The notes: generated by a model not told the origin, from the sequence alone. A stretch of 64,000 nt of DNA from an uncultured Alphaproteobacteria bacterium (GCA_944392125.1 CALXVP010000001.1:289020-353019); one strand, 5' to 3'; positions 1 to 56,150 are shown, numbered from the stretch's first letter. Numbers and translations are program-made.

Positions 1-1567
1 CTTTACCTGTCGTCAAAAGGTCGGTCGAGGACTTCGTTTATGTGTCAATCAAGATGGCGAACGCATTGAGGATAAAGACGTCAATGTTTTGCATGTCATT
101 GCTAATGAAAGTTTTGCCGAATTTGCCGATAAACTGCAAAAAGAAATTGAAGAAGAAACCGGCGTTAAGTTTGGCGTTTTGGAAATCGGTATGTTGACAG
201 GATTAACTTACGAAGAAGAAGTTAAGGTTGAAAAACAAATCTCTCAGGAAACTGCCGAAACAGTCGTCCAAGAACTTCAAAAAACTGGCATTATTGATGT
301 TTGTGGAGCGGTTAATAAAGAAGTGTCCGTTGAAGCAATTGAGCTTTCAAGTGTGCCGGAACCTGTAAAAAAAGAAATTATTGAAACGATAAAGCAGGAA
401 AAACCCGTAACAGTTGCATCCCTTTCACAGACAACCTATACCGAAACAAAGGTTGAAAAAGTTTCTGTCAGCTATGAAGAAGCTGTTCAAATCATGGAAG
501 ATTTAAAAGGTACTCAGGTCATTGACAGTAAAGGTAAAATCAAAGATACCATGAAGGCAGAACTGGCCGCTGGTACATTAAATTTAAGTGACAGATGGTC
601 AAAGGCAAAACAACGTGCTGTTTTACAGGCCTTAAATAAAGCCGATAATAAACCGGTTATTCGTGATGCAAGCAAAGAAGTGACTGTTAAATTAAAGAAA
701 AAAGCAATCCTTAGTCCCGAATTTATGGAATTGTGGAATAAAATCAAGCAAAAGACCACTTATCGTGTCCAGTTTGATTTAGATACTTTGGTTGCAAATA
801 GCATTAAAGAAATTAAGGAAATGCCTGAAATCGGAACGGCTCGTTTACTCAGTCAAACAGCTAATGTTCATATTGAAAAATCGGGTGTTTCGCACCAAGC
901 AGGAAGAACATTTATTCAAGATTTAACCCGTAACTATGAAACATTACCGGATATTTTACGCCTGATTTCCACCAAGACACTTTTGAAACGGTCAACAGTT
1001 AATCGTATTTTACAAGAAAGTGGTCGCATGGCAGACTTTTTGAAGAATCCGCAAGAGTTTTATGAAAAAACATTGGAAATTATTGAACGCAATCGTCATA
1101 AATTGGCTATTGACGGTATTAAGTATATTAAACTCGCCGATGAAGAATACTATGTTCAAGAAATTTTTGACAGCACTGAGTTGATTGCCAACCTTGATAA
1201 AAATGCTGTACCCGTTGAAAACAGTGTTTATGACCATGTCATTTATGATAGCGGTATTGAAAGCAAATTTACTCTTGCCTTGGATAAAGATCCGGATGTT
1301 AAAATGTTCTTTAAAATCCCAAGCCGATTTAAAATTGAAACACCTATCGGAACCTATAATCCGGACTGGGCCGTTTATTTAGAGAAAAATGGCGAGCAAA
1401 AACTTTACTTTGTGTTAGAAACCAAAGGAACGGATAATTTATTCTTACTCAGAGAAGAAGAAAAGTTGAAAATCATGTGTGGAGCCGAACACTTTAAGGC
1501 TTTGGATGGCGTTGGTTTTTCAAAAAATCCTGTCAGAGAATGGCAAGAATTTAAACAAACGATTTAA
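1..1567 (+). CDS. Type III restriction enzyme Res subunit, C-terminal part (5' end outside window)
   Basis: The reading frame is open to the window start. A helicase motif VI-like QKVGRGLRL sits near the start. The C-terminus has a PD-(D/E)xK-like nuclease region (YNPDWAVYLE...ETKG). Confidence 0.55.
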   Translation, partial: FTCRQKVGRGLRLCVNQDGERIEDKDVNVLHVIANESFAEFADKLQKEIEEETGVKFGVLEIGMLTGLTYEEEVKVEKQISQETAETVVQELQKTGIIDVCGAVNKEVSVEAIELSSVPEPVKKEIIETIKQEKPVTVASLSQTTYTETKVEKVSVSYEEAVQIMEDLKGTQVIDSKGKIKDTMKAELAAGTLNLSDRWSKAKQRAVLQALNKADNKPVIRDASKEVTVKLKKKAILSPEFMELWNKIKQKTTYRVQFDLDTLVANSIKEIKEMPEIGTARLLSQTANVHIEKSGVSHQAGRTFIQDLTRNYETLPDILRLISTKTLLKRSTVNRILQESGRMADFLKNPQEFYEKTLEIIERNRHKLAIDGIKYIKLADEEYYVQEIFDSTELIANLDKNAVPVENSVYDHVIYDSGIESKFTLALDKDPDVKMFFKIPSRFKIETPIGTYNPDWAVYLEKNGEQKLYFVLETKGTDNLFLLREEEKLKIMCGAEHFKALDGVGFSKNPVREWQEFKQTI

Positions 1568-1680
1568 AATGAGAAGATAATGGCAAATTAAGTAAATTTT
1601 TAGTTGATTTTAATTTATTTTTAATTTATATAATAATTTTGATGGTAAAAACTAATATTATTTTTTATAGGGAGGATATA

Positions 1681-2112
1681 ATGACAGAAAGAAATGTCGG
1701 AGTTGGTTGCGGCGTTCTCTTATTGAATGATAAAGGACAATTTTTGATGATGAAAAGGGCCTCAAAGCACGCAACGGGAACTTATGCTATTCCCGGTGGT
1801 TGGATGGAGTTTGGAGAAACCTTTGAACAGGTTGCCGAGCGGGAAGTTATGGAAGAGCTTGGTGTTGAAATTGAAAATGTAAAGGTTCTAGGTGCTACAA
1901 ATAATATCTTTCCTATGGAAAATAAACATACGGTTGCTATTATTTTAGCGGCAAAACTTAAATCGGGGACACCGCGTATAATGGAACCGGATAAATGTGA
2001 AAGCATTGCCTGGTATGATGATTGGGAACAGTTGCCGACACCACTCTTTACAGACTATAACAAGTATATTTCAAAAGAACAAATTCAAAATTATGTCAAA
2101 TCAAATCTATGA
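1681..2112 (+). CDS. NUDIX hydrolase
   Basis: Nudix box GGWMEFGETFEQVAEREVMEELGV. RBS gggagg lies upstream of ATG 1681, so I used this later start rather than the ORF-track start. Confidence 0.8.
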   Translation: MTERNVGVGCGVLLLNDKGQFLMMKRASKHATGTYAIPGGWMEFGETFEQVAEREVMEELGVEIENVKVLGATNNIFPMENKHTVAIILAAKLKSGTPRIMEPDKCESIAWYDDWEQLPTPLFTDYNKYISKEQIQNYVKSNL

Positions 2113-3397
2113 TGTAATTGTTATCGGAGCAGGTCCGGCAGGTCTGTTTTCTTCTAGAATCCTAGATAAAAAAGGATTAAAGGTTTTATTATTAGAACAG
2201 GGTTCTAATGTTGCACATAGAGTTTGCGTAAAAAAGGAAAAATGTCAAAATTGCTATACGTGTGCGGAAACTTCTGGAATTGGAGGAGTTGGTGGTTATT
2301 CAGATGGAAAGTTATGTTTAGGTCCAGTTGGAATAGATGACGAGTTATTAGGAGATTCGTATTTATCAGAGTCGGCAGAAATTGAACATATTTTTGCAGA
2401 AAATTTGGGTGATAGAATTATATACCCTCAGTCTAAAAATTTTTTTATGCAGAAGAATAATTTTACTGAGGAGTCAACGCGGGTTATAAAATTAGGAAGT
2501 AATAATGTCAGATTTGCATTCCAGAAAATATTTGATGAATTGACTGTAGAAAAGTCAATACTAACAAGAGTTAATAGTATTCATAAAGCTAGTGATTTAT
2601 TCTTGGTTAAGACGCAAAATAAAGTTTTTTCAACAAAATATGTTGTTTTAGCAACAGGTAAATCTGATCTGCTTTTAAAAAATACCATTCTGCAAGAATT
2701 TTGTATTAATTCTGAGATTGGTTATCCATGTGTAGGCGTGAGAATAGAGGTCCCTCGAATTCAAGCTAAATTACTAGAGGAAACAGCAGAAAATTTAAAA
2801 ATAAAAATGAAGTTCTCAAAAGGATATGTAAAAACACATTGTTTTTGCTCCGCTGGTGAAGTTATTTCTTATAAAAGCAATGGTAATTTGCTAATAGGTG
2901 GTCGTTCTAATTCTGATCAAAGTTCTTCTTTTACAAATGTGGCTATTCTATATAAGTGTATAGATAATGACTTGAAACATGAGGCTTTATTATCTTTAAG
3001 GGCAATTTCAAAATTGTATCCTCATAATACTTTTTTTGAAAGTATTGCTTCTTTTGTTGGCAAAAAACAAGAAAGACTAAAAGTTATCCCTTTATCAAGC
3101 TCAATTCCCTATGAGATAGGTAAGTTATTTCCCGATGAAATTTCCAGTGCACTTAAGACATTTATTTTAAACTTGGAGAAAGAAAAATATATTGATTTAA
3201 CAGGTGGTATTGTTCATGCGCCTTGTTCGGAGTGGACAACACCCAAAATAATAACTTCTTTTGTGGGCGAAACAACACATAATTTATTTTATGTTGGTGA
3301 TGGTTCAGGAAGAACTCAGGGTATTGTTGCAGCAGCAATTATGGGACAACGAGCGGCTCGAGCTATATTAGAACGGGAGCAGAAAAATGGCAGATAA
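2093..3397 (+). CDS. FAD-dependent oxidoreductase (COG2509-like, with CxxC cluster)
   Basis: Dinucleotide-binding motif DVIVIGAGPAGL immediately after internal Met (MSNQIYD). CQNCYTC motif present. Overlaps the NUDIX stop by 20 nt. Confidence 0.65.
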   Translation: MSNQIYDVIVIGAGPAGLFSSRILDKKGLKVLLLEQGSNVAHRVCVKKEKCQNCYTCAETSGIGGVGGYSDGKLCLGPVGIDDELLGDSYLSESAEIEHIFAENLGDRIIYPQSKNFFMQKNNFTEESTRVIKLGSNNVRFAFQKIFDELTVEKSILTRVNSIHKASDLFLVKTQNKVFSTKYVVLATGKSDLLLKNTILQEFCINSEIGYPCVGVRIEVPRIQAKLLEETAENLKIKMKFSKGYVKTHCFCSAGEVISYKSNGNLLIGGRSNSDQSSSFTNVAILYKCIDNDLKHEALLSLRAISKLYPHNTFFESIASFVGKKQERLKVIPLSSSIPYEIGKLFPDEISSALKTFILNLEKEKYIDLTGGIVHAPCSEWTTPKIITSFVGETTHNLFYVGDGSGRTQGIVAAAIMGQRAARAILEREQKNGR

Positions 3398-3986
3398 ACT
3401 GAAAAGAGAAGATTATTTAAAAAATCCCTTTTTTATTGCAAGGCATATTTTACTAGGAGCGTATCTTTGCACAAATATAGATGGGAAACTCACAAGAGGG
3501 AAAATTACTGAGGTGGAGTTATATATTGGTGGGAAAGATAAAGCCTCTCATAGTTATGAGTATAAAAGGACAGCACGAACAGAAATTCAATACCACATTG
3601 GTGGGCATGCCTATATTTTTAAAATTTATGGTATGTATGATCAATTTTGCGTGGTAACTAATGATATAAATATTCCGAATGTAGTATTAATTCGTTCTTT
3701 AGAACCTATAGAAGGAATTGATGTTATGAGGGAAAGAAGAAAAACAAATAATATAAGAAACCTAACAACTGGCCCGGGAAAACTGTGTCAGGCATTGGGG
3801 ATTAAAACAGATGAACACTATGGTATTGATTTATTAGGAGATTTAATTTGGATATCTCCAAAATTGGAAGAAATTAAAATTTCAGACATTATCGCAACAC
3901 CGCGAATAGGGATTGATTACGCACAGGAGTACGTGAAAAAACGCTGGCGTTTTATATTAAAAGACAATAAATATCTTAGTCGTTAA
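3387..3986 (+). CDS. DNA-3-methyladenine glycosylase (Mpg/AAG family)
   Basis: Mpg family signatures: EVELYIGGKDKASH, YIFKIYGMY, LIRSLEPIEG, GPGKLCQALGI. Start overlaps the upstream gene by 11 nt. Confidence 0.8.
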   Translation: MADKLKREDYLKNPFFIARHILLGAYLCTNIDGKLTRGKITEVELYIGGKDKASHSYEYKRTARTEIQYHIGGHAYIFKIYGMYDQFCVVTNDINIPNVVLIRSLEPIEGIDVMRERRKTNNIRNLTTGPGKLCQALGIKTDEHYGIDLLGDLIWISPKLEEIKISDIIATPRIGIDYAQEYVKKRWRFILKDNKYLSR

Positions 3987-4560
3987 CTCGATCGAATCCT
4001 TTAAATTTATTTAAATATTGACATGATATTTTCGATGCCTGTATAAACGAAAGTGTTTTTCTCAAGACTTCATCTTTACTCTCATTGTTAAATTCGATAC
4101 ATGGAGATTTGAAGAGTGAGAGATTAAACTCCTCAAGTAATAAGTTGTCTCGATGTAATCTTGATGCTATTTTCTGAATTTGATCACCGCGATTGACCAT
4201 TCTTCGTTTGAGAGCACCTTGTGATGGATTTAAATAAATAATTCGGAGCAGTTGATCGGCAAAAATCCTCTCGACCTCTTTAGCAAAAGATAAATCAATA
4301 GCTACAATTCCATTTGGCTTACAAAGTTCTTTTTCCTCAATCCCATAGTAATCTGTTCCATTATTAAAACTTATTCTATATTTACGTTTTTGAAACTCGT
4401 CATGAGAAACAAAATAATAATCTTTTGAATCAATTTCCCCCATTCTTTTAAGACGAGTTGTTGTACAAATAATGTTTGAGAAACTTGAATTTGAAGATAA
4501 CAATCCCTCTTTCAAAGTTGTTTTTCCGCTCCCACCGGCACCAAACAAAATTATTAACAT
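3976..4560 (-). CDS. P-loop NMP kinase, guanylate-kinase-like
   Basis: Walker A GAGGSGKTT and a TTR motif (CTTTRLKRMGEIDSKDYYFV) typical of the GMP kinase fold. Convergent with Mpg. Confidence 0.55.
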   Translation of the reverse strand: MLIILFGAGGSGKTTLKEGLLSSNSSFSNIICTTTRLKRMGEIDSKDYYFVSHDEFQKRKYRISFNNGTDYYGIEEKELCKPNGIVAIDLSFAKEVERIFADQLLRIIYLNPSQGALKRRMVNRGDQIQKIASRLHRDNLLLEEFNLSLFKSPCIEFNNESKDEVLRKTLSFIQASKISCQYLNKFKGFDRVND

Positions 4561-4725
4561 GTTTTCCTCCTTTATATATATTATATGATTTTAAATTAAG
4601 ATTCAATATTTTTGATAAAAATAAGTTAGGGAAGCATCCAATAAAACCCATGATTTATATAGTTTTTACTTGCTAAAATACATACCTTTTGTTACATTAT
4701 ATAGGATTATGAAAGGCTTCCAAAA

Positions 4726-7380
4726 ATGAATAAGCAACTTTCTCCCCGTTTTCCCACACCTTTTGCCGCCTTTGCCGAACAACGGCGGCTAGACTGCTAT
4801 ATTGAGGATGAAGGGCTTGTTGCTGCATATGCGTCATCGGATATTCAAATTTTACCCTATCAAATCGCAGCGGCCCGTTTTGCTTTGCGATCTGCAAACA
4901 TAAAAGGCTGTATTTTATGTGATGAAGGCAGTCTTGGTAAAACTTATGAGGCTTTGTTGGTTGTATCGCAACGTTGGTATGAAGGTAAAGAACGGATTTT
5001 AATCGTTTTGCCCCAAAACCTTAAAAGTCAATGGCAAGAAAAATTAACCAAAGAATTTACTCTACCGATAACCGATTGGAGCGAATATACACAAGAGACC
5101 AAAGGCCTGTGCCTGATGACGTATGATGAAGTCATTAAAAATGAAGAAAAAGTCAGTCAAATCATTTGGGATTTAGCTGTTTTTGACGAGGCAGACTTTC
5201 TGTTCAAACCGGGTAATAAGTCAGTTGCCATGATTAAAAAGGCAGTTGGAAATGCGTTTAAACTGCTGTTAACACCAACGCCCATTACATTAAGCATTAT
5301 GGATATTTACGGACTTATCCATTTTATTGATGAAACTTTATTGCCCGATGCAGACAGTTTTTATAAAAGGTATTTTAGAAAACCCGAAAACTATCCCGAA
5401 CTTTCATCTTGGGTGTCTAAGTTTGCGTTTAGAACGCTCAAAAAACAGGTTGAGCCTTATGTTAATTTCACCAAACGCTTGCCGGTTGTTCTCAATTACA
5501 CGCCACAAGACAAGGAGAAAAAGCTCTATGATTTAACCGAAAAATACTTGGCTCTTGATAACAAAACTGCCTATCCGCAAATGGATAATTATCAGTTAGC
5601 ATTACAATTTTATAGAACTCTTTCTTCCTCTCCGCAGGCTTTTGCGAATATGTTGTCGGCTCCGATTGAACGGGCTTCGTCTGATGAACGCATTATTTTA
5701 CATACAATGCAAAAAATGGCTTTGGAAATACCCCTTTCTGCTAAAATGGAAGAATTGTTAAAGGCTCTTAAAACAACATTTGCTCATTTAAAATCTCGCA
5801 AAGAAGTGCAAAAAGCCATTATTTTTGTTGATAACCTGACAACTTTATCCGTTTTATCAGAGTTATTAAAGGAACATTATTCGATTATAAAACACACAGA
5901 TGATAATGCTTTGAACATTTTTAGAGAAGATAAAAATATTCAAATTCTTATCACAAACGATGCAACTGCCAAAGGCTTAGACATAGAATATTGCCCCATT
6001 GTTGTGAACTATGATTTACTTTATAATGCCGTTGAGATGGAACAACGAATTTGTCGTTGCCACCGCCAAGGACAACAATCCGATGTGTTGGTTATCAATT
6101 TGCTCAGTCAGGAAAATATGTCTGATGTGCGTATTTTGGAATTGATTAACAAACGAACTTTACAATTTCAGGGTATTTTCGGGATGTCAGACGATATTGT
6201 CGGTCATTTTGATGAAACTTTGGAGGCTGTTTTACAAAAACGCCGAACCTTGCCCGATATTCAAAGGGATTTTGCACAGAACTTAGAGATAAATAAAGAT
6301 GCCAACGCTCAAGTGGTTTCTGATGCCGAAAGTGTATTGTTTACGACATTTACAAAAGATGTAGCCGAAAAAGTACAGGTTTCACCGCAGTATATTCAAG
6401 AACAGGCCGAATTCATCAATCGGGACTTGTGGGAAGTTGTAAAGTTTTATTTTGAAAAGCATCATCCTCAATATATTATTGATGACATCAATCAAACATT
6501 AACTTTACCGGATGATTGTGAACAACCGCATATGTTCTATTATTGGACTGGGACAAGAAACACACCTTATATAGGAAAACGTCAGTATGGTATGGCCAAA
6601 GATTTTAAACCAGCAAGCGGAAGAATTACCTTAACTTCTATTTTAGCCAAGGGAATTTTTAGTGAAATTGAATGTGCTACAGAGGGCGAAATAAACCTTG
6701 AAACAAATATTGAACCTTGCCAAATCAGTATGTACAATGTCGAATTACGTCGAAAGGGAAAGTTTCTTAAAAGTTATGATGTTTTAACCGGTAAGACGAG
6801 AGATGGCAGGATTTTAACCCAAGAAGAATGTGTCAAAATTTTATCACAGCCAATTAAATCTGTTGAAAATAAGGATAGAGAACGCTCTTATTGGCTAGCA
6901 AACAGTTCGTTTTCTGACAGGTTGCCAGTATTCTTAGAAGATGAGTTGAAAAACAACTATATCAAACAACAAGAAGGTGCTTTTAATACGGATATTGATA
7001 TTATTAAAATGCGTTCATCTCGTCAAAAAGCCGTACTAGAACAAACTCTTGAATCCTTACGCCAAGAAACATCAAAGATTAAGGACTGCATCGGCAGTGC
7101 CAAAGACCGCTTAGAAGAACTTAAAATTCAAAAACAAATCAACGAAAAAGAAAAACAACTCCGCAAAAAGGAAGAAGGCTTGTTTTTTGAACAAATGCGC
7201 ATCGAAGCCAACGCCGAAGAACAAATTGAAAAATTATGTGGAACGGACGGAATATCTGTCGTAGTATCACCGATATTTAAGGTGCAATTTCAAAAAACAC
7301 CCATCATGGATGAAACCCAAGACAAGTGCTTTTTTTTAAATAGAAGTATGACTACTTCACAGCTATTGCGTTTTAACTAA
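4726..7380 (+). CDS. SNF2-family helicase with coiled-coil C-terminal extension
   Basis: Motif I DEGSLGKT, motif II VFDEADFL and motif VI CHRQGQQ. A predicted coiled coil lies near residues 760-840. Confidence 0.8.
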   Translation: MNKQLSPRFPTPFAAFAEQRRLDCYIEDEGLVAAYASSDIQILPYQIAAARFALRSANIKGCILCDEGSLGKTYEALLVVSQRWYEGKERILIVLPQNLKSQWQEKLTKEFTLPITDWSEYTQETKGLCLMTYDEVIKNEEKVSQIIWDLAVFDEADFLFKPGNKSVAMIKKAVGNAFKLLLTPTPITLSIMDIYGLIHFIDETLLPDADSFYKRYFRKPENYPELSSWVSKFAFRTLKKQVEPYVNFTKRLPVVLNYTPQDKEKKLYDLTEKYLALDNKTAYPQMDNYQLALQFYRTLSSSPQAFANMLSAPIERASSDERIILHTMQKMALEIPLSAKMEELLKALKTTFAHLKSRKEVQKAIIFVDNLTTLSVLSELLKEHYSIIKHTDDNALNIFREDKNIQILITNDATAKGLDIEYCPIVVNYDLLYNAVEMEQRICRCHRQGQQSDVLVINLLSQENMSDVRILELINKRTLQFQGIFGMSDDIVGHFDETLEAVLQKRRTLPDIQRDFAQNLEINKDANAQVVSDAESVLFTTFTKDVAEKVQVSPQYIQEQAEFINRDLWEVVKFYFEKHHPQYIIDDINQTLTLPDDCEQPHMFYYWTGTRNTPYIGKRQYGMAKDFKPASGRITLTSILAKGIFSEIECATEGEINLETNIEPCQISMYNVELRRKGKFLKSYDVLTGKTRDGRILTQEECVKILSQPIKSVENKDRERSYWLANSSFSDRLPVFLEDELKNNYIKQQEGAFNTDIDIIKMRSSRQKAVLEQTLESLRQETSKIKDCIGSAKDRLEELKIQKQINEKEKQLRKKEEGLFFEQMRIEANAEEQIEKLCGTDGISVVVSPIFKVQFQKTPIMDETQDKCFFLNRSMTTSQLLRFN

Positions 7381-7495
7381 TATTTAGGATTACGGTTTAA
7401 TTATTATTGATTATCGTGGTAAGTTATGATATAGTAAAGCAACAAAATGTCGTGTACTGGAGTATTATTCTTTAAAATACAAGAAAGATAATGTT

Positions 7496-8410
7496 ATGAG
7501 AAATTTGGTTGTATTTGATTTTGGAACAAGTAAAATTAAGACCTTGTTATGCAAAGTTGATGATTTTGGGAAATTTACAAAAAAAACAGAATTCACAAAT
7601 GTTTCCATAGGAAAATTATTATCTGATAACAATAAAATTTTCAATGATGAAAAATATGCAATTCTAAATGACTTCAATGAAAAAATAAATGGTCTTATGG
7701 AAAACTTTCAGGATACCGAGCTTGAGTTTAAAGCTATCGCAACAGAGGCTTTTAGAAAAAGTCATGAACTAGAAGATGCCCTTTATAAAGCTACCAATAA
7801 GTTTAGTATAGATTTAGAGATATTAACACCGAGGAGAGAGTGTGAACTGTTGGCTGCCAATTTTAACTTAACAGAATCTGATTTACTTTTGGATATAGGT
7901 GGTGGAAGCATAAACACTATCTATAAATGTAAAGGCATGTTAAATACCCACTGTTATAGCTTAGGCGCGTATGTTTTACATAATTTATTCCAAAGTAATG
8001 GTGAGTTATTTGATAATGCCATCTATACAGCTATGGATAAATATATAAAAAAAGAAATATTTTCTTCTATTTGTCACAGAACCTTTACGAGGGTTGTTGT
8101 TGGATCAAACCAGATGCTCAGTTTCTTTAATAGTCTTTCTGAGAAAACTGGGCTCAATTTTATGCGTAACGATTCTTTTGATGCTAGCTGCATCAATACG
8201 TTAATAAATAATGTTTTTTTGGACAGAAAGTATGAAGATTTATTTCAATATTTTGAACAAAACCCAAGTTTTATGTATGGAGCAGATAAAATGTTATTGA
8301 TTTTAGAAAATTTCGTTAAATTTTTTGATATTAAAGTAATATCTCCTACAGATGATGGAATAGCGTTAGGTTTTGTAAAAACCTGTTTAAACTTGGCTCC
8401 ACTTTCATGA
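7496..8410 (+). CDS. Ppx/GppA-family (ASKHA fold) phosphatase-like protein
   Basis: Phosphate-1 motif VVFDFGTSKIK and phosphate-2 motif LLLDIGGGSINT, as in the exopolyphosphatase/GppA N-terminal domains. Confidence 0.5.
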   Translation: MRNLVVFDFGTSKIKTLLCKVDDFGKFTKKTEFTNVSIGKLLSDNNKIFNDEKYAILNDFNEKINGLMENFQDTELEFKAIATEAFRKSHELEDALYKATNKFSIDLEILTPRRECELLAANFNLTESDLLLDIGGGSINTIYKCKGMLNTHCYSLGAYVLHNLFQSNGELFDNAIYTAMDKYIKKEIFSSICHRTFTRVVVGSNQMLSFFNSLSEKTGLNFMRNDSFDASCINTLINNVFLDRKYEDLFQYFEQNPSFMYGADKMLLILENFVKFFDIKVISPTDDGIALGFVKTCLNLAPLS

Positions 8411-8417
8411 TATTACT

Positions 8418-9095
8418 ATGATTTATTTAAAATACGATTTGAACGATGAAAAAGTAAAATATCTTATTCAAAGCGATGAAAATTTGGGTAAGCTAATCAA
8501 ATATATTGGTTCTAGTGAACTAGCTATAGAGGAAGATTCTTTTAAATGTCTTGTAAAATACATTATTGGACAGCAAATCAGTGATAAAGCACGCGAAACA
8601 ATTTGGAAAAAAGTTTGCTCTAACATTGAAAATATTGCCCCTAATGACATATTAGGAATGAGTGATGAAGGGCTTTATAAAGCGGAAATTCCAAGACATA
8701 AAGTTAAATATATAAAGGCGTTAGCACATGAAATTGTAAGAAAAAGAATAGATTTTGAAATATTACAAACACTTTCAAATGAAAAGATAATTTCGCAATT
8801 AACTTTAGTAAAAGGTATTGGGAGGTGGACCGCTGAGATGTATTTGATTTTTTCATTAAAACGAGAAAATATTTTTTCAGAGAGTGATGGAACTCTTAAG
8901 CGTGTTATCCAATGGATGTATAATCTGAATGAAATACCTTCTACAGGAGTAATAAAGGAATACTTCTCTAATTGGATGGAGTACGCTACGATTGTTTCTT
9001 CATACCTATGGAAATCTATTGAATTAGGGTTAATTTGTAAACCATTTGAGCAGGTAATTTCGGGAAAACAAGGCGATGTAGATAATGTTAGATAA
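8418..9095 (+). CDS. HhH-GPD superfamily DNA glycosylase (AlkA/Ogg-like)
   Basis: Helix-hairpin-helix LVKGIGRWTAEMYLIF followed by a conserved Asp (SESDG). Confidence 0.65.
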   Translation: MIYLKYDLNDEKVKYLIQSDENLGKLIKYIGSSELAIEEDSFKCLVKYIIGQQISDKARETIWKKVCSNIENIAPNDILGMSDEGLYKAEIPRHKVKYIKALAHEIVRKRIDFEILQTLSNEKIISQLTLVKGIGRWTAEMYLIFSLKRENIFSESDGTLKRVIQWMYNLNEIPSTGVIKEYFSNWMEYATIVSSYLWKSIELGLICKPFEQVISGKQGDVDNVR

Positions 9096-10326
9096 CTTAT
9101 ACTGGATGAAATATTCCATAAATATTTCACAAAAAGCACCTTGGTCTAAACTAAAAACAGGTGTGGTACTTGTTTCCAAGCAAAATGAATTGATTTGTTC
9201 CGCTTACACTGGGGAAGAAGATAATTCATCTTGGCTGGATGTTTTGTTAAAAAAAATAAAAGGTAGTAGTCTTTTCAATGGATGGTGTCTTTATCTCACG
9301 GTTAATACATTATCGAAAACAGAGTCATTTGATCTAATTGAATTACTAAAGCTAATTCACGTTCGTAAAATATATGTAGGGCTCCCGGATTTTAGGCTGG
9401 AAAATTATCTAAACGGGGATCCTGTTCTGGTACTAGATTATGTTCATCGTTACCCTGATGATTTACAACGTGAAATATTAAAACAGAATAAGCGTTTTTA
9501 CGCAAACAGTAGACAAAGCATTCAGTATAGTTCGTACTATTCTGCTAATAGAATCAGCAGTTTTGTGTTAGAGAAACTGGAACGAAAAGGTATAACTATT
9601 TCTGAAGAAGAGCTTAATATAAATAAAAAAAGTACAGCTCTCGCATCTTTAATTTTTAATAAATATGAAATTGAGTATGAGAAGGCCGCTTGTATAGTAG
9701 ATAATATCTTATCCGAGGCCTTTAATAACAAATATAGTAAATATGATTATTTGAATGATATACGTTCATTTGATTTAGGATGGAAACAAACCTTTCAATC
9801 TATCTATAACAGGGTATCTAAGAAGCCGATGCCTGGTATGAATATACTAAATGTTGGTGTTGGTTCTGGAAATGAAGCTATTAGTTTATTTTCAAATTGT
9901 CCTCATATCACCTTTGTTGATATTGCTGGGGAGGGACTTGAACGAATTAAAATACAACTTCCATTATCTAATTTTGTTGTTTCTAAAGCGGAAAATTTAT
10001 CTTCTTTGAATGAAAATAGCTATGAATTATATATTTCTTTAAGAACCTATAATTCTTCATTTTTTGATATTAATCATGCAATATCAGAAGCATACAGGGT
10101 GTTAAAAAAGGATGCTATTATAATTATTTCCATAGCCAATGGATTTTTATGTTCTGGGGAAAAACGAATTATCCCTGGTTTAATAGTTCCAGGTACAGAT
10201 TTTGTTGATATTTATAGGGGGATAGATACAGTTAAGTTGCTACATAAAAACTTCGTTCAAATAGGATTTAAAAATATTCAAATTTTCCCAACTAAAACAG
10301 AAAGTTATTTAACAGCAGTCAAGTAA
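9085..10326 (+). CDS. Fusion protein: degenerate cytidine/dCMP-deaminase-like domain + class I SAM-dependent methyltransferase
   Basis: The N-terminus resembles the RibD/dCMP-deaminase fold but lacks HxE and PCxxC. The C-terminus has methyltransferase motif I ILNVGVGSGNEA and a post-I acidic residue (FVDIAG). Confidence 0.5.
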   Translation: MLDNLYWMKYSINISQKAPWSKLKTGVVLVSKQNELICSAYTGEEDNSSWLDVLLKKIKGSSLFNGWCLYLTVNTLSKTESFDLIELLKLIHVRKIYVGLPDFRLENYLNGDPVLVLDYVHRYPDDLQREILKQNKRFYANSRQSIQYSSYYSANRISSFVLEKLERKGITISEEELNINKKSTALASLIFNKYEIEYEKAACIVDNILSEAFNNKYSKYDYLNDIRSFDLGWKQTFQSIYNRVSKKPMPGMNILNVGVGSGNEAISLFSNCPHITFVDIAGEGLERIKIQLPLSNFVVSKAENLSSLNENSYELYISLRTYNSSFFDINHAISEAYRVLKKDAIIIISIANGFLCSGEKRIIPGLIVPGTDFVDIYRGIDTVKLLHKNFVQIGFKNIQIFPTKTESYLTAVK

Positions 10327-10345
10327 TCAAACAAAGGCGAGTATT

Positions 10346-11062
10346 ATGATGAAACAAATAACTTTTGCAGATAACGTATTGCGCTTTCATGATGAACTTT
10401 CACATCAATCACTTTCATTGCCAGAAGGGTTTAGACTGGTCAATCCATTTGTTGCCGCTCAAAAAGAGAAAGTAAAACAGGTAACAACGCTTTTTTATCA
10501 AAAATATTATAACGATAGTAATCCTAGACGCCTTATACTTGGGAGTTCTCCAGCCAGACGGGGGACAGCCGTGACCGGCGTTCCCTTTGAAGATGCGGCA
10601 CATCTTCAAAAAGAAACAGGAATTTCCATTGATAAATTTTTTATCAATCACTCTTCATCAGGATTTTTATATGAAGTTATGGATGAATATGGTGGTTGTA
10701 ATAAATTTTATGCGGACTTTTATATGAGTTTTGTTTGCCCTCTTGGGATAGTTAAAATAAACTCAAAAGGTAATGAGGTTAATTGTAATTATTATGAAAA
10801 TAAAAAATTACGAGAGGTATTATCACCATTTATTGTACGTATGCTTCATCGACAAATAACTTTAGGTATTGATACATCTGTATGTTATTGTATTGGGAGT
10901 GGTGAAAATTATAGCTTTTTGTCTACACTTAATGAAGAGCATAAGTTTTTTGATTTAATATTACCATTAGAGCATCCTCGTTTTATAATGCAATACAATT
11001 TAAAAGATAAAGAAAAATTTATGAATAAATATATGAATGCATTTTGTAAGTATAAAAGTTAA
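10346..11062 (+). CDS. Uracil-DNA glycosylase superfamily protein (family 4/SMUG-like, DUF4918-like)
   Basis: LGSSPARRGTAVTGVPFED resembles the UDG motif GEAPG..E..G.PF. Confidence 0.5.
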   Translation: MMKQITFADNVLRFHDELSHQSLSLPEGFRLVNPFVAAQKEKVKQVTTLFYQKYYNDSNPRRLILGSSPARRGTAVTGVPFEDAAHLQKETGISIDKFFINHSSSGFLYEVMDEYGGCNKFYADFYMSFVCPLGIVKINSKGNEVNCNYYENKKLREVLSPFIVRMLHRQITLGIDTSVCYCIGSGENYSFLSTLNEEHKFFDLILPLEHPRFIMQYNLKDKEKFMNKYMNAFCKYKS

Positions 11063-11095
11063 TACAATGTAAAGTTTCTATGAATGGAGGAAGAA

Positions 11096-11875
11096 ATGGA
11101 AAATAGAGACAATAAAACACTGGTACATTTTAATACAGATACCATTAAAATATATGATTTAAAAAATGGTATATTAAAAATGTTAAATGAGGAGCGTGTT
11201 TCCTTTGGAACAGGTTGTTTAAGTGAGGTTTTAGAGAAGATAAAAGAATTTTTAAATCATTTAAGCAATTATACAAACGAAATAAATAATACATCTGTCA
11301 GGTTATATGCCACGGGTTTATTCCAAAATTTTAAACAGGAGGAAAAAAATCAAATAGTTAATAACATTTTCGTGGATTATGCTCTTTATTTTAATGTAGT
11401 GCCTTTCGATTTAGAACAGTTTTATTTGCAAAATAGCAGAAATATTTGTGAATCTGAAAATATGATACAAGGATTGCTATGTCAGGAATTTAGAAATGTT
11501 GTTGTATGCGGAAGCTTTCAACAGTTTTTACAAGACATTGAAAAACTGATTAAACATTTATATAGGTATAATATTAATGTACTTAGTCCAGCCTCAACAA
11601 AAATTAAACCAGAAACAATAGGAACTGAGTTCATTCTTTTTGATTATCAAGACTGTATTAAAAATGAGCGTGATACTTGGCGGCATAAGTATGAACATAT
11701 GGAAAAATTTAGACAAGCGGATGCTATTATCGTTTGTGATCCTCGTGGAGTGGTTGGCAAGGGAACTATATTTGAGTTTGGTTTTATGACTGCTATTTCA
11801 AAAAGGATCATATTTATGGAACAGCCAAAAAATATATCCATTTTCTTTCCGTATGAGATTGGACTTAATTTTTAG
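11096..11875 (+). CDS. Protein with C-terminal nucleoside 2-deoxyribosyltransferase-like (Rossmann-like) domain
   Basis: C-terminal ADAIIVCDPRG...GKGTIFEFGFMTAISKRII matches the nucleoside 2-deoxyribosyltransferase core motif. The RBS ggagg precedes the ATG at 11096. Confidence 0.45.
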   Translation: MENRDNKTLVHFNTDTIKIYDLKNGILKMLNEERVSFGTGCLSEVLEKIKEFLNHLSNYTNEINNTSVRLYATGLFQNFKQEEKNQIVNNIFVDYALYFNVVPFDLEQFYLQNSRNICESENMIQGLLCQEFRNVVVCGSFQQFLQDIEKLIKHLYRYNINVLSPASTKIKPETIGTEFILFDYQDCIKNERDTWRHKYEHMEKFRQADAIIVCDPRGVVGKGTIFEFGFMTAISKRIIFMEQPKNISIFFPYEIGLNF

Positions 11876-11925: not shown

Positions 11926-12120
11926 TTAATTCGAACACATTTCATCATAAACGAGGTTATTTCGGTCAATTTGCCGGATAGTTTCGGGTGTATCTTGCTC
12001 GTAATCCGCATAAATAGGCTCGTAAATCAGGCAGAAATCACCGTTTATATTTGTCGTGCAACCGGCGGATGCGGTCAATATCAATAACATTATCCCGTAT
12101 CGTTTTAGCTTTTTGAACAT
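11926..12120 (-). CDS. Rz1-like outer-membrane spanin lipoprotein (copy 1)
   Basis: Signal peptide plus lipobox LTASAGC. Partly overlaps the Rz-like gene in another frame. About 90% identical to copy 2. Confidence 0.6.
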   Translation of the reverse strand: MFKKLKRYGIMLLILTASAGCTTNINGDFCLIYEPIYADYEQDTPETIRQIDRNNLVYDEMCSN

Positions 12121-12304
12121 TTTCCAAGGTTCCTTTCATTGTTTTGACTTGTTCTTTATGTTTTCCTTTTTGGTAGCCCAGCAGGTATAAAATTGCTAAA
12201 CCACCGCCGATAATCCAATATTTTGCTTTATTCCAAGCTGTCGTTATGAGTGTCCACATTGTAGTTTTCCTTTCATTTTTTTTGTGTTTAGATTTGTTTT
12301 GTTG
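11928..12304. repeat. Direct repeat copy A (~375 bp, spanin module)
   Basis: About 90-93% identity to 13927-14293 by eye. Confidence 0.8.
12038..12259 (-). CDS. Rz-like inner-membrane spanin (copy 1)
   Basis: N-terminal TM (WIIGGGLAILYLL) followed by a charged/coiled region. The internal Met matches the start of copy 2. Confidence 0.5.
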   Translation of the reverse strand: MWTLITTAWNKAKYWIIGGGLAILYLLGYQKGKHKEQVKTMKGTLENVQKAKTIRDNVIDIDRIRRLHDKYKR

Positions 12305-12445
12305 CAAATATCTAAAAAACGACAGCTTCCGCAAGGAATTTCCAGAATTCTACCTTTAAAACCATTCAAAAGATTGTTAAAAATAAGGTCTGTATCAGAA
12401 GTATCTGAAAATTCCAAATCATAAAAGACACTTCTGTCCTTATAA

Positions 12446-13566
12446 TCATTTAATTTCATTCCAGTGTTCCATATGGCGTTGAACTTCAAAGTGGACTATC
12501 TTTCCGTTTTCAACAATTTTACCTGCTTCTGCTACATCATAAGGTTTTTGAGTATAAATACCCTCTGCCATTTGATATAGATAGTATGAGAGATGCTTTG
12601 ACATTGCCTGTACCGTTGTTACAGAATAAGCTGATGGCAGTACATCAATTTTACAATGTAATACACCATATTTTGAAAAAACAGGATTTTCAAGTGTTGT
12701 ATTGTGATCAAATGTTTCTATATATCCAGAACCATAACCACAGGTTACATCCATTATAATGGCGCCTTTTTTCATTTTTTTCACCATTTCTTTTGTTACA
12801 ATGGGTTTTGTATCATAAGTGGATATTAAAATAGCCCCAATCAACACATCTGCATCTAACAATTCTTGGCGTAATTTGTTAGGCGTATTTAGAAAACACT
12901 TAGTATTTGTTGGCATTGATGCCTGAAATGCTCTTAATTTTTCCCTGTTTTGGCCAAAAACAACTACATTTGCCCCCCATGGAAGCAGCCATTCTTGCAG
13001 CGGCACCACCCGCATTCCCATACCCGATGACAACAACCTTTGGTGGCTTTACATTCACCATAGGAGCTAATAAAACACCGGAGCCCCCTCTATTATTCTG
13101 TAGATGGTAAGCGGCAAAAATAACAGCTACTTTTCCTGCAATTTCACTACTTGCAACAGAAGCGGGAAAAATACCTTCTTTTGTTTTAAAAAATTCATAT
13201 GTATAAGCCGTACATTTACTTTTTAACAATTTATCCGTTAATTCTTTGTTGCCTTCTGCATGAAAAACAGCTCCAATATGTTTATCTGCATTAATAATTA
13301 ATATATTTGAACTCTGAATCAACTGGTGGCTTATATTTAAATATCACATTACTTTGAGTCCAAGCCTGTTTCGTGGAAACAATTTTAGCCCCAACATTTG
13401 CATATTCTTTATCAGGTATACCAATTCCTGAACCTGTGCCTCTTTCAACATATACATCATATCCGTTTTGAATGAATATGCGTAAATCTTCTGGCAAAAG
13501 TATTGTACGTCGCTCTCCTACCTTCTTTTCTTTAATGATAGAAATTGTTTTTTTATTCTTTTTCAT
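12446..13566 (-). pseudogene. Alanine dehydrogenase/PNT-family gene disrupted by two frameshifts
   Basis: Three consecutive overlapping minus-strand ORFs together cover an Ald-like protein. The N-terminal domain is ILLPEDLRIFIQNGYDVYVERGTGSGIG. The NAD-binding segment is VVVIGYGNAGGAAARMAA. The C-terminal segment is GAIIMDVTCGYGSGYIETFDHN. Confidence 0.6.
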
Positions 13567-13568
13567 TT

Positions 13569-13841
13569 TTAGTCCGATATGTCAAATTGAATCACTTGGA
13601 AGCCATACTTGCCAATTTCTTCTTGAGACCAGTAAGTACAATCCTTTGTTTTCATAACATAGGAAACATTGACATTCACTTTACGCCCAGTTTCTTGCTT
13701 TGTAACATCATCTATTTCAACTAAAACGAGTGTATCACCTTGATTGATTTTAAAATCAGCCAAACGTAATTCTGTTTTCTTTTCTCCTGAAAGTACTTTT
13801 TTGAAATATTCTGATAATATTTTCTTTTGAACTTGCGCCAT
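13569..13841 (-). CDS. DUF3850/ASCH-like small protein
   Basis: Pattern ILSEYFKKVLSGEKKTELRLADFKINQGDTLVLVE. Confidence 0.45.
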   Translation of the reverse strand: MAQVQKKILSEYFKKVLSGEKKTELRLADFKINQGDTLVLVEIDDVTKQETGRKVNVNVSYVMKTKDCTYWSQEEIGKYGFQVIQFDISD

Positions 13842-13911
13842 GGTTATCCCCCATACTTTTTGATATTTTCAATATAATATAAAAAATATATAAAAGCAAG
13901 AAAATTTTTTA

Positions 13912-14109
13912 CTACGTTTCTATACAAATTTCATCATAAACAAGGTTATTTCGGTCAATTTGCCGGATGGTTTCCGGTGTATCTTGTTCGTAATCCGCAT
14001 AAATCGGCTCGTAAATCAGGCAAAAATCACCGTTTATATTTGTTGTGCAACCGGCGGATGCGGTCAATATCGATAACATGATCCCGAATAATTTTAGCTT
14101 TTTGAACAT
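13912..14109 (-). CDS. Rz1-like outer-membrane spanin lipoprotein (copy 2)
   Basis: Near-identical paralog of 11926-12120 with the same lipobox. Confidence 0.6.
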   Translation of the reverse strand: MFKKLKLFGIMLSILTASAGCTTNINGDFCLIYEPIYADYEQDTPETIRQIDRNNLVYDEICIET

Positions 14110-14293
14110 TTTCCAAGGTTCCTTTCATCGTTTTTACTTGTTCTTTATGTTTTCCTTTTTGGTAGCCGAGCAGATATAAAATTGCCAAACCACCGCCGAT
14201 AATCCAATATTTTGCTTTATTCCAAGCCGTTGTTATAAGTGTTAACATTATAGTTTCCCTTTCATTTTTCTTGTGTTTAGATTTGTTTTGTTG
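13927..14293. repeat. Direct repeat copy B (spanin module)
   Basis: Matches 11928-12304. Confidence 0.8.
14027..14248 (-). CDS. Rz-like inner-membrane spanin (copy 2)
   Basis: Paralog of 12038-12259. Confidence 0.5.
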   Translation of the reverse strand: MLTLITTAWNKAKYWIIGGGLAILYLLGYQKGKHKEQVKTMKGTLENVQKAKIIRDHVIDIDRIRRLHNKYKR

Positions 14294-14614
14294 AATCGGG
14301 CAAATAAACCGGTATTGCTAAATTTTCTCACTAACCCCGTTCGAAAATAAAGCAATTACCTCGTTTATTTTCCTTTCTTTAACCCAATATCTCTTACTCC
14401 GCTTACGCCAAGCACAATATCTAGTCCCATCAGCAGATATTCCCAATCCACGTTTGGAACACTAAAAAACGGGACAACCACGCAGTTGTGGAATATCCCG
14501 TAGCAGAGTATCCACCCCCACCCAAGCCACCTTCATTCCTCACATTATCAAATTTGGTGCGATAAAAAATCATTGAGTAATAGGAAAATGGTCACAGATG
14601 TATAGTGACATACA

Positions 14615-16030
14615 TCAAGACCATTTGACGAAAATAATCAGTGATTTTTTACGCATCCGTAGGACAAGGCGTATTTTGCCGATTTTAAGTTGAATTTTGT
14701 TTAATTGTATATCTGCCAAAACCCAAGCAACAGAACGGGTTGCCACCGGCGATGACCATCCTCCACTTGGCGACCATGTCGGCAGTTTTCTTGTGACGAT
14801 ACAGTTGACCATACGAGACGAACGCTGTGATAGGTTATCGGTGGCTCGCATCGTAATGGCAAGCAATGTCACGTTCCCATAGTCTTTATCTGACACGATA
14901 TAGCCCTTGGCCGAACCCCACCGGATTTCATGGCCGGCACGTGAAGATGTGTCTTTGGCATCTAACCGAGTAGCTCTGACCTCATACCTGCCGGTTGTAA
15001 CCGAATAAGTATAGGTTTTATACATGGCATTGTGGTTATTGCTTGTAATACTTTCCGTTCCAAGCGTAACCCAATCACCCAGCGCATTATCTTCATCATC
15101 AATCCGCCTGGCATCGATACGCCATTGAATGGTTTTATTGGCCATGGTGCCATTGTTGTTTGCATAATAAAGGCCTCTTTGAAAAGCTACATCAATCTCT
15201 ATTTTATCGATTACACTTTCTGTCGGATTTAATACAAAAGGTCCGCATACCTCATCTTTTAGCAGTTCTTGCCCGGCAACTTCAGGCGAAGTCACAACAT
15301 CATCACGAAAGAGCGTGTTTTGCTCGCCCGGATTGATTATTTTGTATGTAATCTCTTCAAATGAATCAATCGGAGTATCTTCAATTCTTATTTGTTCGAT
15401 GTTATATTCACCTTGACCAATGCAATGGAGCTGATAAACATACTGTTCATCATTCGCATATGCATAATATGGCTGACTGGCAAAATCCGGATAAATCAGG
15501 TGCCGCCCGTAAATGACCGGTATCGGACTACCGAGCCTTGCTTGGTTTCCTTGCGCTTGCAAAGAGTATGTCGGACTTTGTGCCGCTATGGAGTTGGCCG
15601 AGCCTGAACCATTAAGCGATGCCCTTGGGGTGGGAACAAATGTATTAACCAAAAAGCTCCCGGCCATAGAGACACCGGCCGCCGCAACGCCGCCCCATAC
15701 AGCACCATAAGCTGCTCCTACAGCACCGCCAGTATAAACAGAAGCAACCACAACGGCCACCATCAAAACAACTTGAATAGGGTTTGATGACTTTTTACCG
15801 CCACCGCCTTGTGGTAAAGTGATGAAGCAGACCAAGGATTTCGGCTGAACGGTATCGTTCCAAAACTTCCTGAGGACTGCGGCACCGTCTATCATGCATA
15901 TTGTCGGGCGCGAAAGGTCCACTTTCTGTTCCCGGACCATGTCCCAAACGGTTTTGCCGTCATCAAGGACATTGTCTATCCGACCCTTATTCGGCTGAAA
16001 AGGGTTTGTAATGTGTGAAAAGTAAATCAT
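14615..16030 (-). CDS. Phage tail assembly protein I fused to N-terminal ~280 aa of host-specificity protein J (truncated)
   Basis: The N-terminal ~190 aa resemble lambda gpI, including the Gly-rich hydrophobic stretch and a PIPVIYG-like motif. The remainder resembles the lambda gpJ N-terminus. The ORF ends about 800 aa earlier than a J protein. Confidence 0.55.
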   Translation of the reverse strand: MIYFSHITNPFQPNKGRIDNVLDDGKTVWDMVREQKVDLSRPTICMIDGAAVLRKFWNDTVQPKSLVCFITLPQGGGGKKSSNPIQVVLMVAVVVASVYTGGAVGAAYGAVWGGVAAAGVSMAGSFLVNTFVPTPRASLNGSGSANSIAAQSPTYSLQAQGNQARLGSPIPVIYGRHLIYPDFASQPYYAYANDEQYVYQLHCIGQGEYNIEQIRIEDTPIDSFEEITYKIINPGEQNTLFRDDVVTSPEVAGQELLKDEVCGPFVLNPTESVIDKIEIDVAFQRGLYYANNNGTMANKTIQWRIDARRIDDEDNALGDWVTLGTESITSNNHNAMYKTYTYSVTTGRYEVRATRLDAKDTSSRAGHEIRWGSAKGYIVSDKDYGNVTLLAITMRATDNLSQRSSRMVNCIVTRKLPTWSPSGGWSSPVATRSVAWVLADIQLNKIQLKIGKIRLVLRMRKKSLIIFVKWS

Positions 16031-20297: not shown

Positions 20298-20562
20298 AAG
20301 GCATTATTCTCCTAAATATAATCAAATTTGGTGTTAGCAAAAAATGTTTTTGATTAGGCGTTTGATTGCAAATGATTTGATTAATCATTAAAAACAAACA
20401 ACGACATCAGAAATATTTTTTGCAACATCGTAGACAATGCTTATTTTGCCGATTTTCTTCAAAATTTTTTTTGTTAATATATTCCATATTATCTGCATAA
20501 AATTCCTTGAAACTCATCAAAATAAGCTATTGCCAAATTGATGATATTCAGGAAAATAATGC

Positions 20563-54457: not shown

Positions 54458-54715
54458 TTTGATTCCTTTTATCTAACCCCGACCCACACCCGAATCAGCC
54501 TATTAAAGGCTGGCGATTCAAACTGATGATATCGGTAATAATTCATTATACCGTTTTCAAATTAAAAGTTCAAGTTTTTTCATATCGTATTGATAACTTT
54601 TTTAATTTATCCAAAAATCACGCGCTAAAAAGAAGAGATGAATCATCATAGCGGGAGGAATAAGGGAGACGTAGATGTAAGGGTGAGCAAAAAGAGAAAA
54701 TAAGAGGCATAAAAA

Positions 54716-54752
54716 AGTGAGGCGTTCAAAGCGAACGCCCCGTTGTTCAGAA
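54716..54752 (-). terminator. Rho-independent terminator downstream of pilin paralog 2
   Basis: GGCGTTC-aaagc-GAACGCC stem followed by a T-run on the minus strand. Confidence 0.55.
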
Positions 54753-54784
54753 TGTTTAAAAACGAAATTCTTGTGTTTCGCTGA

Positions 54785-56050: not shown

Positions 56051-56083
56051 TTGAGCAAAGGCATCTCCGCCCCACATCATACA

Positions 56084-56118: not shown

Positions 56119-56150
56119 TTTTCAAAAACGAAATTCTTATGTTCAGCAAA

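Follow-up and report, generated by a model that had tools for sequence, protein, structure and literature searches.

Two orphan spanin pairs around an alanine dehydrogenase-family pseudogene: probable stacking of prophage right ends in an uncultured gut alphaproteobacterium

Why should a gene for a metabolic dehydrogenase lie between two copies of a phage lysis gene pair? The question is raised by a 64,000-nt stretch of DNA from an uncultured gut Alphaproteobacteria bacterium (GCA_944392125.1, CALXVP010000001.1:289020-353019), hereafter the window, in which all positions below are counted. Two closely similar i-spanin/o-spanin gene pairs of the Rz/Rz1 type, A and B, flank a gene of the alanine dehydrogenase (AlaDH)/PNT family that is interrupted by frameshifts. 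Read from high to low coordinates, the minus strand carries a truncated gene for tail tip protein J, scraps of two small genes, spanin pair B, a DUF3850 gene, the AlaDH/PNT pieces, a methyltransferase fragment and spanin pair A (Table 1). Comparison with related contigs, labelled L001, L002 and so on, leads us to consider it likely, with a probability of about 0.8, that the locus is a composite decaying prophage in which the right ends of two phage lineages are stacked, with orphan spanins and a recent AlaDH pseudogene.

The two repeat copies and their junction

An earlier note on this DNA had described two modules of about 375 bp and about 90% identity, each encoding an overlapped i-spanin/o-spanin pair, and the description holds closely. 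The copies are 370 nt long and 92.97% identical (E 4e-157; alignment and self-BLAST), lie head to tail 1989 nt apart, and contain the core returned by a repeat search at 11935-12234 and 13924-14223 (94% over 300 nt). Each begins 42 nt before the i-spanin ATG and ends three to four codons short of the o-spanin stop. Of the further suggestion that the repeats are the footprint of an insertion or duplication event, the rearrangement stands and the tandem duplication appears not to, because copy A shares 96.5% identity with the lone spanin cassette of L004 and L006 and only 93% with copy B. Copy B is itself 93% identical to the cargo-linked single copy of L004, yet its flanking cargo carries no substitutions; across the 1.6 kb between the two copies, window and L004 differ only by two indels in the AlaDH gene. 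The cassettes form a "divergence island", 84-94% identical between contigs, set in DNA that is 99.4-100% identical to that of relatives and, from the o-spanin stop on, 99.5-100% identical. Compared with L012 or L007, the window shows 22-54 differences inside copy A and none in the 925 nt to its right; compared with L002, L004 or L007, it shows 26-42 differences inside copy B and none in the 345 nt to its right.

Outside the overlap of the two genes, 15 of the codon changes between A and B are synonymous and one is non-synonymous, and the mature o-spanins are identical from the lipid-bearing cysteine through residue 60. Divergence that is almost purely synonymous suggests that the differences built up under purifying selection, in working phages. 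The o-spanin ends follow the neighbouring genes: ...DEMCSN (then stop) accompanies the 263-aa neighbour in window copy A, in L012 and in the second, degenerate copy of L007, and ...DEICI(E/K)T (then stop) accompanies DUF3850 cargo in window copy B, L002, L004, L005 and L006. All four pairings of start type (MW or ML) with end type (CSN or CI(E/K)T, each then stop) are seen among the copies, which shows that lineages have recombined within the cassette. On these comparisons, copies A and B are probably not sister copies. Adenine-targeted, diversity-generating mutation of the cassette was considered and rejected, the substitutions being mixed and mostly synonymous.

The edge of copy A holds an item that was missing from the earlier note, a 51-codon methyltransferase fragment with 100% identity (tblastn) to residues 1-51 of the L006 methyltransferase. 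In alignment, homology to L002, L004 and L005 stops at the end of ...GATATTTG, that is, at a junction at 12304/12305. The usual spanin upstream sequence is missing at copy A and is carried by every other copy. A microhomology-mediated junction was tried as an explanation and set aside: the closest common word, ATTTG, is offset by 7 nt, and the junction is best called non-homologous. Both sides of it have relatives with a single spanin pair. In L002, L004 and L006 the pair is followed by DUF3850, AlaDH (370 aa), a methyltransferase (262 aa), proteins of 243, 400 and 165 aa and an AdoMet decarboxylase (AdoMetDC), and then by a convergent SNF2 helicase gene 92% identical to that of the window. 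In L012 (CASEYR010000003.1, a metagenome-assembled genome deposited as "uncultured Alphaproteobacteria bacterium"), J (741 aa), genes of 84, 138 and 66 aa and the spanin are followed by the 263-aa gene and a UDG gene; this was the sole locus found among species-representative genomes with the 263-aa neighbour, which abuts the single spanin there and ends 50 nt from o-spanin A in the window. The window consists of the left part of the first arrangement, to methyltransferase codon 51, and the right part of the second, from 42 nt before the spanin. We read the region as two phage right-end fragments that appear to meet at one non-homologous junction, 12304/12305.

The arrangement is not confined to the window. 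The comparison with related genomes that the earlier note had proposed gave both possible outcomes, a single spanin in L002, L004, L006 and L012, and the window's two-copy arrangement in all 10 contigs that carry i-spanin allele B. Seven of the 10 are shown, from seven samples in two sample series that differ in contig-name style ("NODE_", "scaffold_"), and the other three were collapsed as similar; the seven share AlaDH pieces of 91, 140 and 156 aa, a 71-aa methyltransferase fragment and the second spanin. Identity to the window is 99.4% over 14.8 kb in L003, 100% over 6.2 kb in L008 and 99.95% in L011. The identical junction and indels in all 10 contigs indicate that neither is a sequencing or assembly error.

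Spanin-terminated remnants are stacked in other ways elsewhere. L001, like L009 and L010, carries three cassettes within 9 kb (9549-9918, 11150-11528 and 18250-18601 in L001) with open i-spanin reading frames; in these contigs AlaDH is truncated at the equivalent of window position 12836 and joined about 160 nt upstream of the second spanin, the third cassette following 7 kb on. A fragment of the ParB-methylase gene directly adjoins the first cassette of L001, an arrangement that implies the deletion of nearly a whole phage. In L007 and L015 a second, degenerate cassette lies beside genes for a 259-aa protein and UDG and still has before it 56 nt of J and part of the 59-aa gene, scraps that indicate that the cassette was once part of a whole phage. 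Such stacking appears to have arisen independently in relatives.

The AlaDH gene was said to carry two frameshifts, near 12950 and 13300, and both were found, as a lengthened G-run and a 7-nt tandem duplication (Table 1). Against the intact 370-aa gene of L004 and L006, the window gene shows 0 substitutions in 1113 nt and these two indels only; L002 has an uninterrupted gene with one substitution. Together the +7 and +1 nt indels leave three reading frames, and no single open reading frame (ORF) spans the gene. The TATTAAT duplication is present in L003, L008 and L011 and absent in L002, L004, L005 and L006. Intact alleles have G5 at the G-run, whereas it is G6 in the lineage of the window (also in L003, L008 and L011) and G4 in L005 (near 10856), a distribution that suggests independent slippage in both directions. 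Relatives have the gene broken in other ways, L005 by its G4 and L001 and L007 by truncation. The proposal that the frameshifts are programmed or are sequencing errors is contradicted by the intact 370-aa alleles with 0-1 substitution and by the presence of both indels in all 10 allele-B contigs. A programmed shift would be conserved and required, and the gene is uninterrupted in L004, L006 and L002. From these alignments the indels appear both recent and disabling.

Spanin genes and the cargo slot behind them

The strongest support for the predicted spanin identity is the gene context in relatives. There, the same genes stand directly after a 137-aa protein that matches phrog_873 "endolysin" (E 8e-58) and a hydrophobic, holin-like protein of 59-70 aa, downstream of a full-length J; the 73-aa protein of i-spanin A itself is encoded just behind the endolysin and a small membrane protein in L013, L015, L016, L019 and L022. 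A lysis-cassette position with endolysin and holin is found in these relatives and not in the window. The i-spanin has a hydropathy peak (mean Kyte-Doolittle 1.37 over 17 residues, residues 12-28) after a Lys-containing N-terminus, and is predicted to adopt type II topology, with an N-terminal transmembrane helix and the remainder periplasmic. The o-spanin signal, read from the translations as MFKKLK(R/L)(Y/F)GIML(L/S)ILTASAG ahead of the cysteine C, has Thr and not Asp as residue +2, and conforms to the PROSITE PS51257-type lipoprotein rule; the lipobox codons are kept in most copies, and those of L007 differ or have the region deleted. The o-spanin gene starts 139 nt after the i-spanin start in the +1 frame, overlaps it by 83 nt and reaches 112-115 nt past its end. 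The architecture is that of the overlapped class.

Both o-spanins match phrog_1275 "Rz-like spanin" (E 8.5e-8 for A, 1.5e-6 for B). An upstream TTG at 12334, inside the methyltransferase fragment, extends the i-spanin A reading frame to 98 aa, and in this extended form the protein gave a weak match to phrog_1026 (E 0.0066); i-spanin B had no match, and a Pfam scan matched neither the i-spanin nor the o-spanin. The combined periplasmic length of the pair, about 87 residues, falls within the range of 62-300 found for 528 two-component spanin pairs and is consistent with known two-component spanins (PMC6139136). Disruption of the outer membrane is a putative function of pairs A and B.

The pairs resemble the overlapped class, as in phage P2 LysB/LysC, in that a lipoprotein gene begins inside a type II inner-membrane gene, in the +1 frame, and passes its stop, and in that the pair stands directly behind the endolysin in intact relatives. 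They differ from known overlapped spanins in that the i-spanin is very short (73 aa), its periplasmic part has no cysteine, profile similarity is distant only, and the window holds no endolysin or holin partner. Lambda Rz/Rz1, unlike the overlapped pairs here, belong to the embedded class. No cultured phage relative of the spanins was found; a DNA search of a phage collection returned only two short, unannotated faecal phage contigs, which match at the spanin repeats and have 60-65% amino-acid identity. The IMG/VR viral contigs gave no match to the AlaDH protein or to a conserved spanin DNA word, and a scan of JGI metagenomes with the same word returned one short contig, with an intact lysis cassette and then HU and integrase.

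The dehydrogenase had been placed inside a lysis module. In intact relatives, however, the endolysin comes first, then a small membrane protein, the spanins and a cargo operon of seven genes; the dehydrogenase lies downstream of the lysis cassette, and it belongs to a hypervariable cargo slot and not to the lysis module. We surveyed this slot downstream of the spanin in L013, L015, L016, L018, L019 and L021 and at 10001-14970 of L004/L006. Its left boundary falls within the last 2-4 codons of the o-spanin, after the last Cys codon, and relatives that vary in the slot encode an identical i-spanin protein. At least six unrelated sets occupy it: the DUF3850-AlaDH operon; a 263-aa/UDG/methyltransferase/HhH-GPD/Ppx-GppA block; a PEP-mutase/TPP-enzyme/aldehyde-dehydrogenase/OTCase set; a set with two radical-SAM enzymes; a deoxynucleoside-kinase-like gene with a HAD hydrolase; and HU followed by integrase and a type I restriction system. 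The PEP-mutase set is phosphonate-like. As in moron or lambda b-region cargo, variable, AT-rich genes that are not phage-like follow the last late gene, ahead of the prophage end, and differ between otherwise similar phages; unlike in such cargo, the left boundary is unusually sharp and the genes come as multi-gene metabolic sets (the AlaDH-AdoMetDC operon, the PEP-mutase set and the radical-SAM set).

Within the DUF3850-AlaDH operon, the 400-aa protein matches phrog_35625 "tRNA synthetase" and has a KLSKS motif, the 243-aa protein is methyltransferase-like, the 165-aa protein has no family assignment and the AdoMet decarboxylase is TIGR03330. The DUF3850 gene that had been reported between the repeat copies is there (PF12961, Table 1), and an identical protein sequence is indexed in 60 blocks of a public collection. 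A sequence search against solved structures gave no meaningful match for the 400-aa cargo protein or DUF3850. The intact AlaDH of relatives can be aligned over its full length with alanine dehydrogenases of solved structure (8hyh, E 2e-54; 1pjb, E 1e-51) and, like the proteins of TIGR00518, has both the N- and C-terminal Pfam domains (PF05222 and PF01262). It differs from that alanine dehydrogenase equivalog in score, the intact L004 allele reaching 236.8 bits against a cut-off of 391.85, and in its operon setting with two methyltransferases and AdoMetDC, besides being a pseudogene in the window. It would be classed only as a member of the AlaDH/PNT superfamily. Among deposited phage genomes, AlaDH-family genes occur in 8 of 50,697 records, at no more than 32.5% identity.

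Proposed history and its rivals

The phage genes present in the window are a sigma-like gene, ParB-methylase, gpW, portal, head protease, tail proteins L and K, and the truncated J; nothing similar to terminase, major capsid, tail tube or tape measure was found among the window ORFs scanned. The earlier note had remarked that no holin or endolysin was adjacent, and this extends to the whole window, where tblastn gave no homologue of the 83-aa holin candidate or the 137-aa endolysin, nor of the relatives' 160-aa, 284-aa and 497-aa tail-region proteins and distal cargo genes. When the J of L004 was searched in the same way, only residues 1-438 matched. The deletion that removed the C-terminus of J probably also took the holin candidate and the endolysin, and fragments of five genes mark deletion junctions. 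The phage genes have a GC content of 42-45% in flanks of 30-36%, and the DNA past 25.1 kb encodes host sugar-nucleotide and heptose biosynthesis. By its gene content the element is a defective (cryptic) prophage, apparently dead.

Its history can be proposed as follows. The relatives would be temperate siphophages of the lambda type, and the last genes of their late operon would be those for J, an 83-aa membrane protein, endolysin, a small holin-like protein and the overlapped i-/o-spanin pair. Unit B would comprise the truncated J, scraps of lysis genes, spanin B and the first genes of the DUF3850-AlaDH-methyltransferase cargo operon, and unit A would comprise spanin A from 42 nt before its start codon and then the 263-aa/UDG block. 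The junction at 12304/12305 would have truncated the methyltransferase behind codon 51, with loss of the other five operon genes, either through a deletion inside a tandem lysogen or in a single step, through illegitimate recombination of a resident remnant with an incoming phage that carried cargo. Loss of the operon partners may then have relaxed selection on the AlaDH gene, which would have acquired two slippage indels very recently, with no substitutions. Spanins, as known from lambda Rz/Rz1, are inert until the endolysin removes the peptidoglycan. As there is no endolysin, neither pair would be expected to act in lysis, and both would persist as harmless relics.

A comparable situation exists in E. 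coli K-12, whose defective prophages contain orphan Rz/Rz1-type genes: rzpD/rzoD in DLP12, rzpR/rzoR in Rac and rzpQ/rzoQ in Qin. These orphan copies stem from different lambdoid phages and not from gene duplication. There, as here, diverged spanin pairs persist in remnants that are short of most structural genes. The present locus is unlike E. coli K-12 in that only 2 kb separates the two remnants, which share one locus (in L001, three lie within 9 kb), in that each ends at the o-spanin stop, and in that the host is an uncultured alphaproteobacterium.

Several points weigh against this history. No contig with the full tandem-lysogen ancestor was found, and the route to the junction is one that we infer; all comparison sequences are metagenome assemblies. 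The attachment site was not located: neither the window nor six loci hold tRNA or tmRNA genes, and a search for direct repeats of at least 11 nt found none that the left prophage edge has in common with the 3' region of SNF2. The 263-aa/UDG/.../SNF2 block may be either host DNA or phage cargo. Furthermore, both spanin pairs of the window and all three in L001 are still open reading frames, which could hint at selection; if the two disabling events per 1.1 kb of AlaDH are taken as the rate, the 680 nt that encode the spanins should have about 1.2, and the 0 seen is not a significant departure.

The alternatives are less likely. Head-to-tail copies with sharp common boundaries, 1989 nt apart, would fit a true in-situ tandem duplication of one spanin cassette, for example by replication slippage or unequal crossing-over around an inserted cargo, followed by divergence or gene conversion, and Kongari et al. 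propose that spanin loci duplicate during changes of architecture (PMC6139136). We nevertheless regard this as quite improbable, as the copies are 7% apart although the intervening 1.6 kb matches L004 without a substitution, copy A is nearer to another genome's copy than to copy B, the two 3' ends are those of two different single-copy relatives, and at its left edge copy A meets a truncated gene to which it is unrelated. Near-purely synonymous divergence would also be unexpected for decay after duplication in a dead prophage. A functional arrangement, in which AlaDH is expressed through programmed or phase-variable frameshifting and the orphan spanins are selected for envelope remodelling or as homology anchors for cargo capture, fits somewhat worse still. 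The G-run does vary between G4, G5 and G6 among contigs, the spanin ORFs are open in the two window copies and the three of L001, and DUF3850 is perfectly conserved. However, two +1 shifts, of 7 nt and 1 nt, leave three frames, the 7-nt duplication is not a slippery site and a run of five or six G is short for phase variation; the downstream operon genes are deleted, intact and otherwise nucleotide-identical alleles exist, and relatives have deletions inside AlaDH. On the spanin side, open ORFs are not significantly above chance for 340-nt targets, and the second copy of L007 has degenerated, with an in-frame stop and its lipobox deleted.

That the locus is an artefact, two strain alleles having been concatenated in assembly and indel errors having produced the AlaDH frameshifts, can practically be discounted. 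Although the comparison data are metagenome assemblies and one indel lies in a homopolymer, the junction and both indels occur in all 10 allele-B contigs (the seven shown coming from seven samples in two series), a 7-nt tandem duplication is atypical of read error, and the methyltransferase/spanin junction offers no common k-mer to mislead an assembler. An extension of the stacking idea is conceivable, doubtful as it is: the last codons of the o-spanin might be a dedicated cargo-exchange hot spot in this phage family, with spanin units accreting as arrays that selection keeps as homology anchors by which resident remnants acquire multi-gene metabolic cargo from incoming phages. The sharp divergence island and the at least six unrelated cargos at one boundary are compatible with such a hot spot, but plain modular recombination and decay explain the same evidence.

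The composite of stacked, decaying right ends remains the reading that we prefer. So understood, the locus exemplifies well-known processes, prophage decay and mosaic recombination at the boundaries of genes, and adds to the known orphan Rz/Rz1-type genes; it is mildly unusual in the sharp cargo boundary at the o-spanin stop and in the recurrent stacking of spanin-terminated remnants. In annotation it should be labelled as two orphan spanin pairs, an AlaDH-family pseudogene, a truncated methyltransferase and an intact DUF3850 gene in a defective prophage; it should be called neither a lysis module that includes a metabolic gene nor an enzyme regulated by frameshifting. It would provide a clean natural illustration of the way in which the right ends of prophages become stacked and worn down at a single site in the chromosome of an uncultured gut alphaproteobacterium, and it flags a phage family in which the slot directly behind the spanins carries varied multi-gene metabolic sets. 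The uncharacterised operon that is intact in relatives, with AlaDH, two methyltransferases, a tRNA-synthetase-family-like protein and AdoMetDC, is a more promising object than the window remnant.

Features of the locus and its surroundings

The features of the locus are collected in Table 1. The 59-aa holin-like gene, of which a remnant lies upstream of spanin B, is positioned between the endolysin and the spanins in L004, L006 and L019.

Table 1. Coordinates of the features around the two spanin pairs, as positions in the window
Feature	Position	Strand	Remarks
Convergent 263-aa gene	11084-11875	plus	Weakly similar to nucleoside 2-deoxyribosyltransferase; abuts copy A
o-spanin A, 64 aa	11926-12120	minus	Predicted lipoprotein signal MFKKLKRYGIMLLILTASAG ahead of C; +1 frame; C-terminal end ...DEMCSN, then stop
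Direct repeat copy A	11935-12304	minus	370 nt; ribosome-binding region and i-spanin/o-spanin pair minus last o-spanin codons
i-spanin A, 73 aa	12038-12259	minus	Lys-rich N-terminus, hydrophobic at about residues 12-28, charged C-terminal part of about 44 aa
SAM methyltransferase class I, first 51 codons	12305-12459	minus	262 aa in relatives; ends at copy A edge
AlaDH/PNT-family pseudogene	12446-13566	minus	Three frames, pieces of 91, 140 and 196/156 aa; Pfam PF05222, PF01262
G-run, 6 G	12973-12978	minus	Second disabling mutation of the AlaDH gene; Rossmann-fold region
7-nt tandem duplication TATTAAT	13297-13303	minus	First disabling mutation of the AlaDH gene
DUF3850/ASCH-like gene, 90 aa, intact	13569-13841	minus	PF12961, E 1.3e-14; first gene of the cargo operon
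o-spanin B, 65 aa	13912-14109	minus	C-terminal end ...DEICIET, then stop
Direct repeat copy B	13924-14293	minus	370 nt
i-spanin B, 73 aa	14027-14248	minus	Four amino-acid differences from A
Remnant of 59-aa hydrophobic holin-like gene, C-terminal 50 codons	14368-14517	minus	tblastn 98% identity
Truncated tail tip protein J	14615-16030	minus	PF24801, phrog_31/phrog_469; J part is the N-terminal ~438 of ~740 residues
Remnant of alternative 66-aa small gene (L002-type relatives)	14621-14734	minus	tblastn 76% over 38 aa; in-frame fusion to truncated J

An Rfam scan of the whole window found no RNA family. Between 11700 and 14900, promoter-like sites were below the shuffled expectation and terminator-like sites within about one standard deviation of it.

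To the left of the spanins, window 1-11875 holds the C-terminus of a ResIII/RE_endonuc gene, NUDIX, FAD oxidoreductase, Pur_DNA_glyco, guanylate kinase, SNF2 helicase, Ppx-GppA, HhH-GPD, methyltransferase and UDG-family genes, and the gene for the 263-aa protein. The block is rich in DNA glycosylase and nucleotide-metabolism genes and varies, L012 lacking window 1568-4843; the block might serve as an island for defence or for DNA modification. Homology breaks at one point of the SNF2 gene, within its 3' end, in several contigs (window 7105-7237, L001 17336-17468, L004 near 15253), and L001 retains only a 133-nt SNF2 fragment that ends at the same break. This break, at about 7237, may be a recurrent recombination or attachment point, although no defined site could be derived.

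To the right, a stretch of about 250 nt between gpW and portal (20304-20559) is 69% similar to L002 9053-9309, in the endolysin-spanin region of L002-type relatives; it may be a repeated intergenic phage element, and it has no Rfam match. Further on, at 31108-48872, lie the gene for a TpsB-type transporter with ShlB and POTRA_2 domains and, behind it, an ORF of 5232 aa. The outer-membrane transporter indicates that the host is diderm. The ORF, which has no Pfam match at E 1e-5, is presumably a two-partner-secretion exoprotein of unusual sequence. The window also contains a second direct repeat, at 55103-55449 and 56418-56764 (347 nt, 87.6% identity, about 1.3 kb apart), and a weaker repeat pair at 54708-54863 and 56078-56235.

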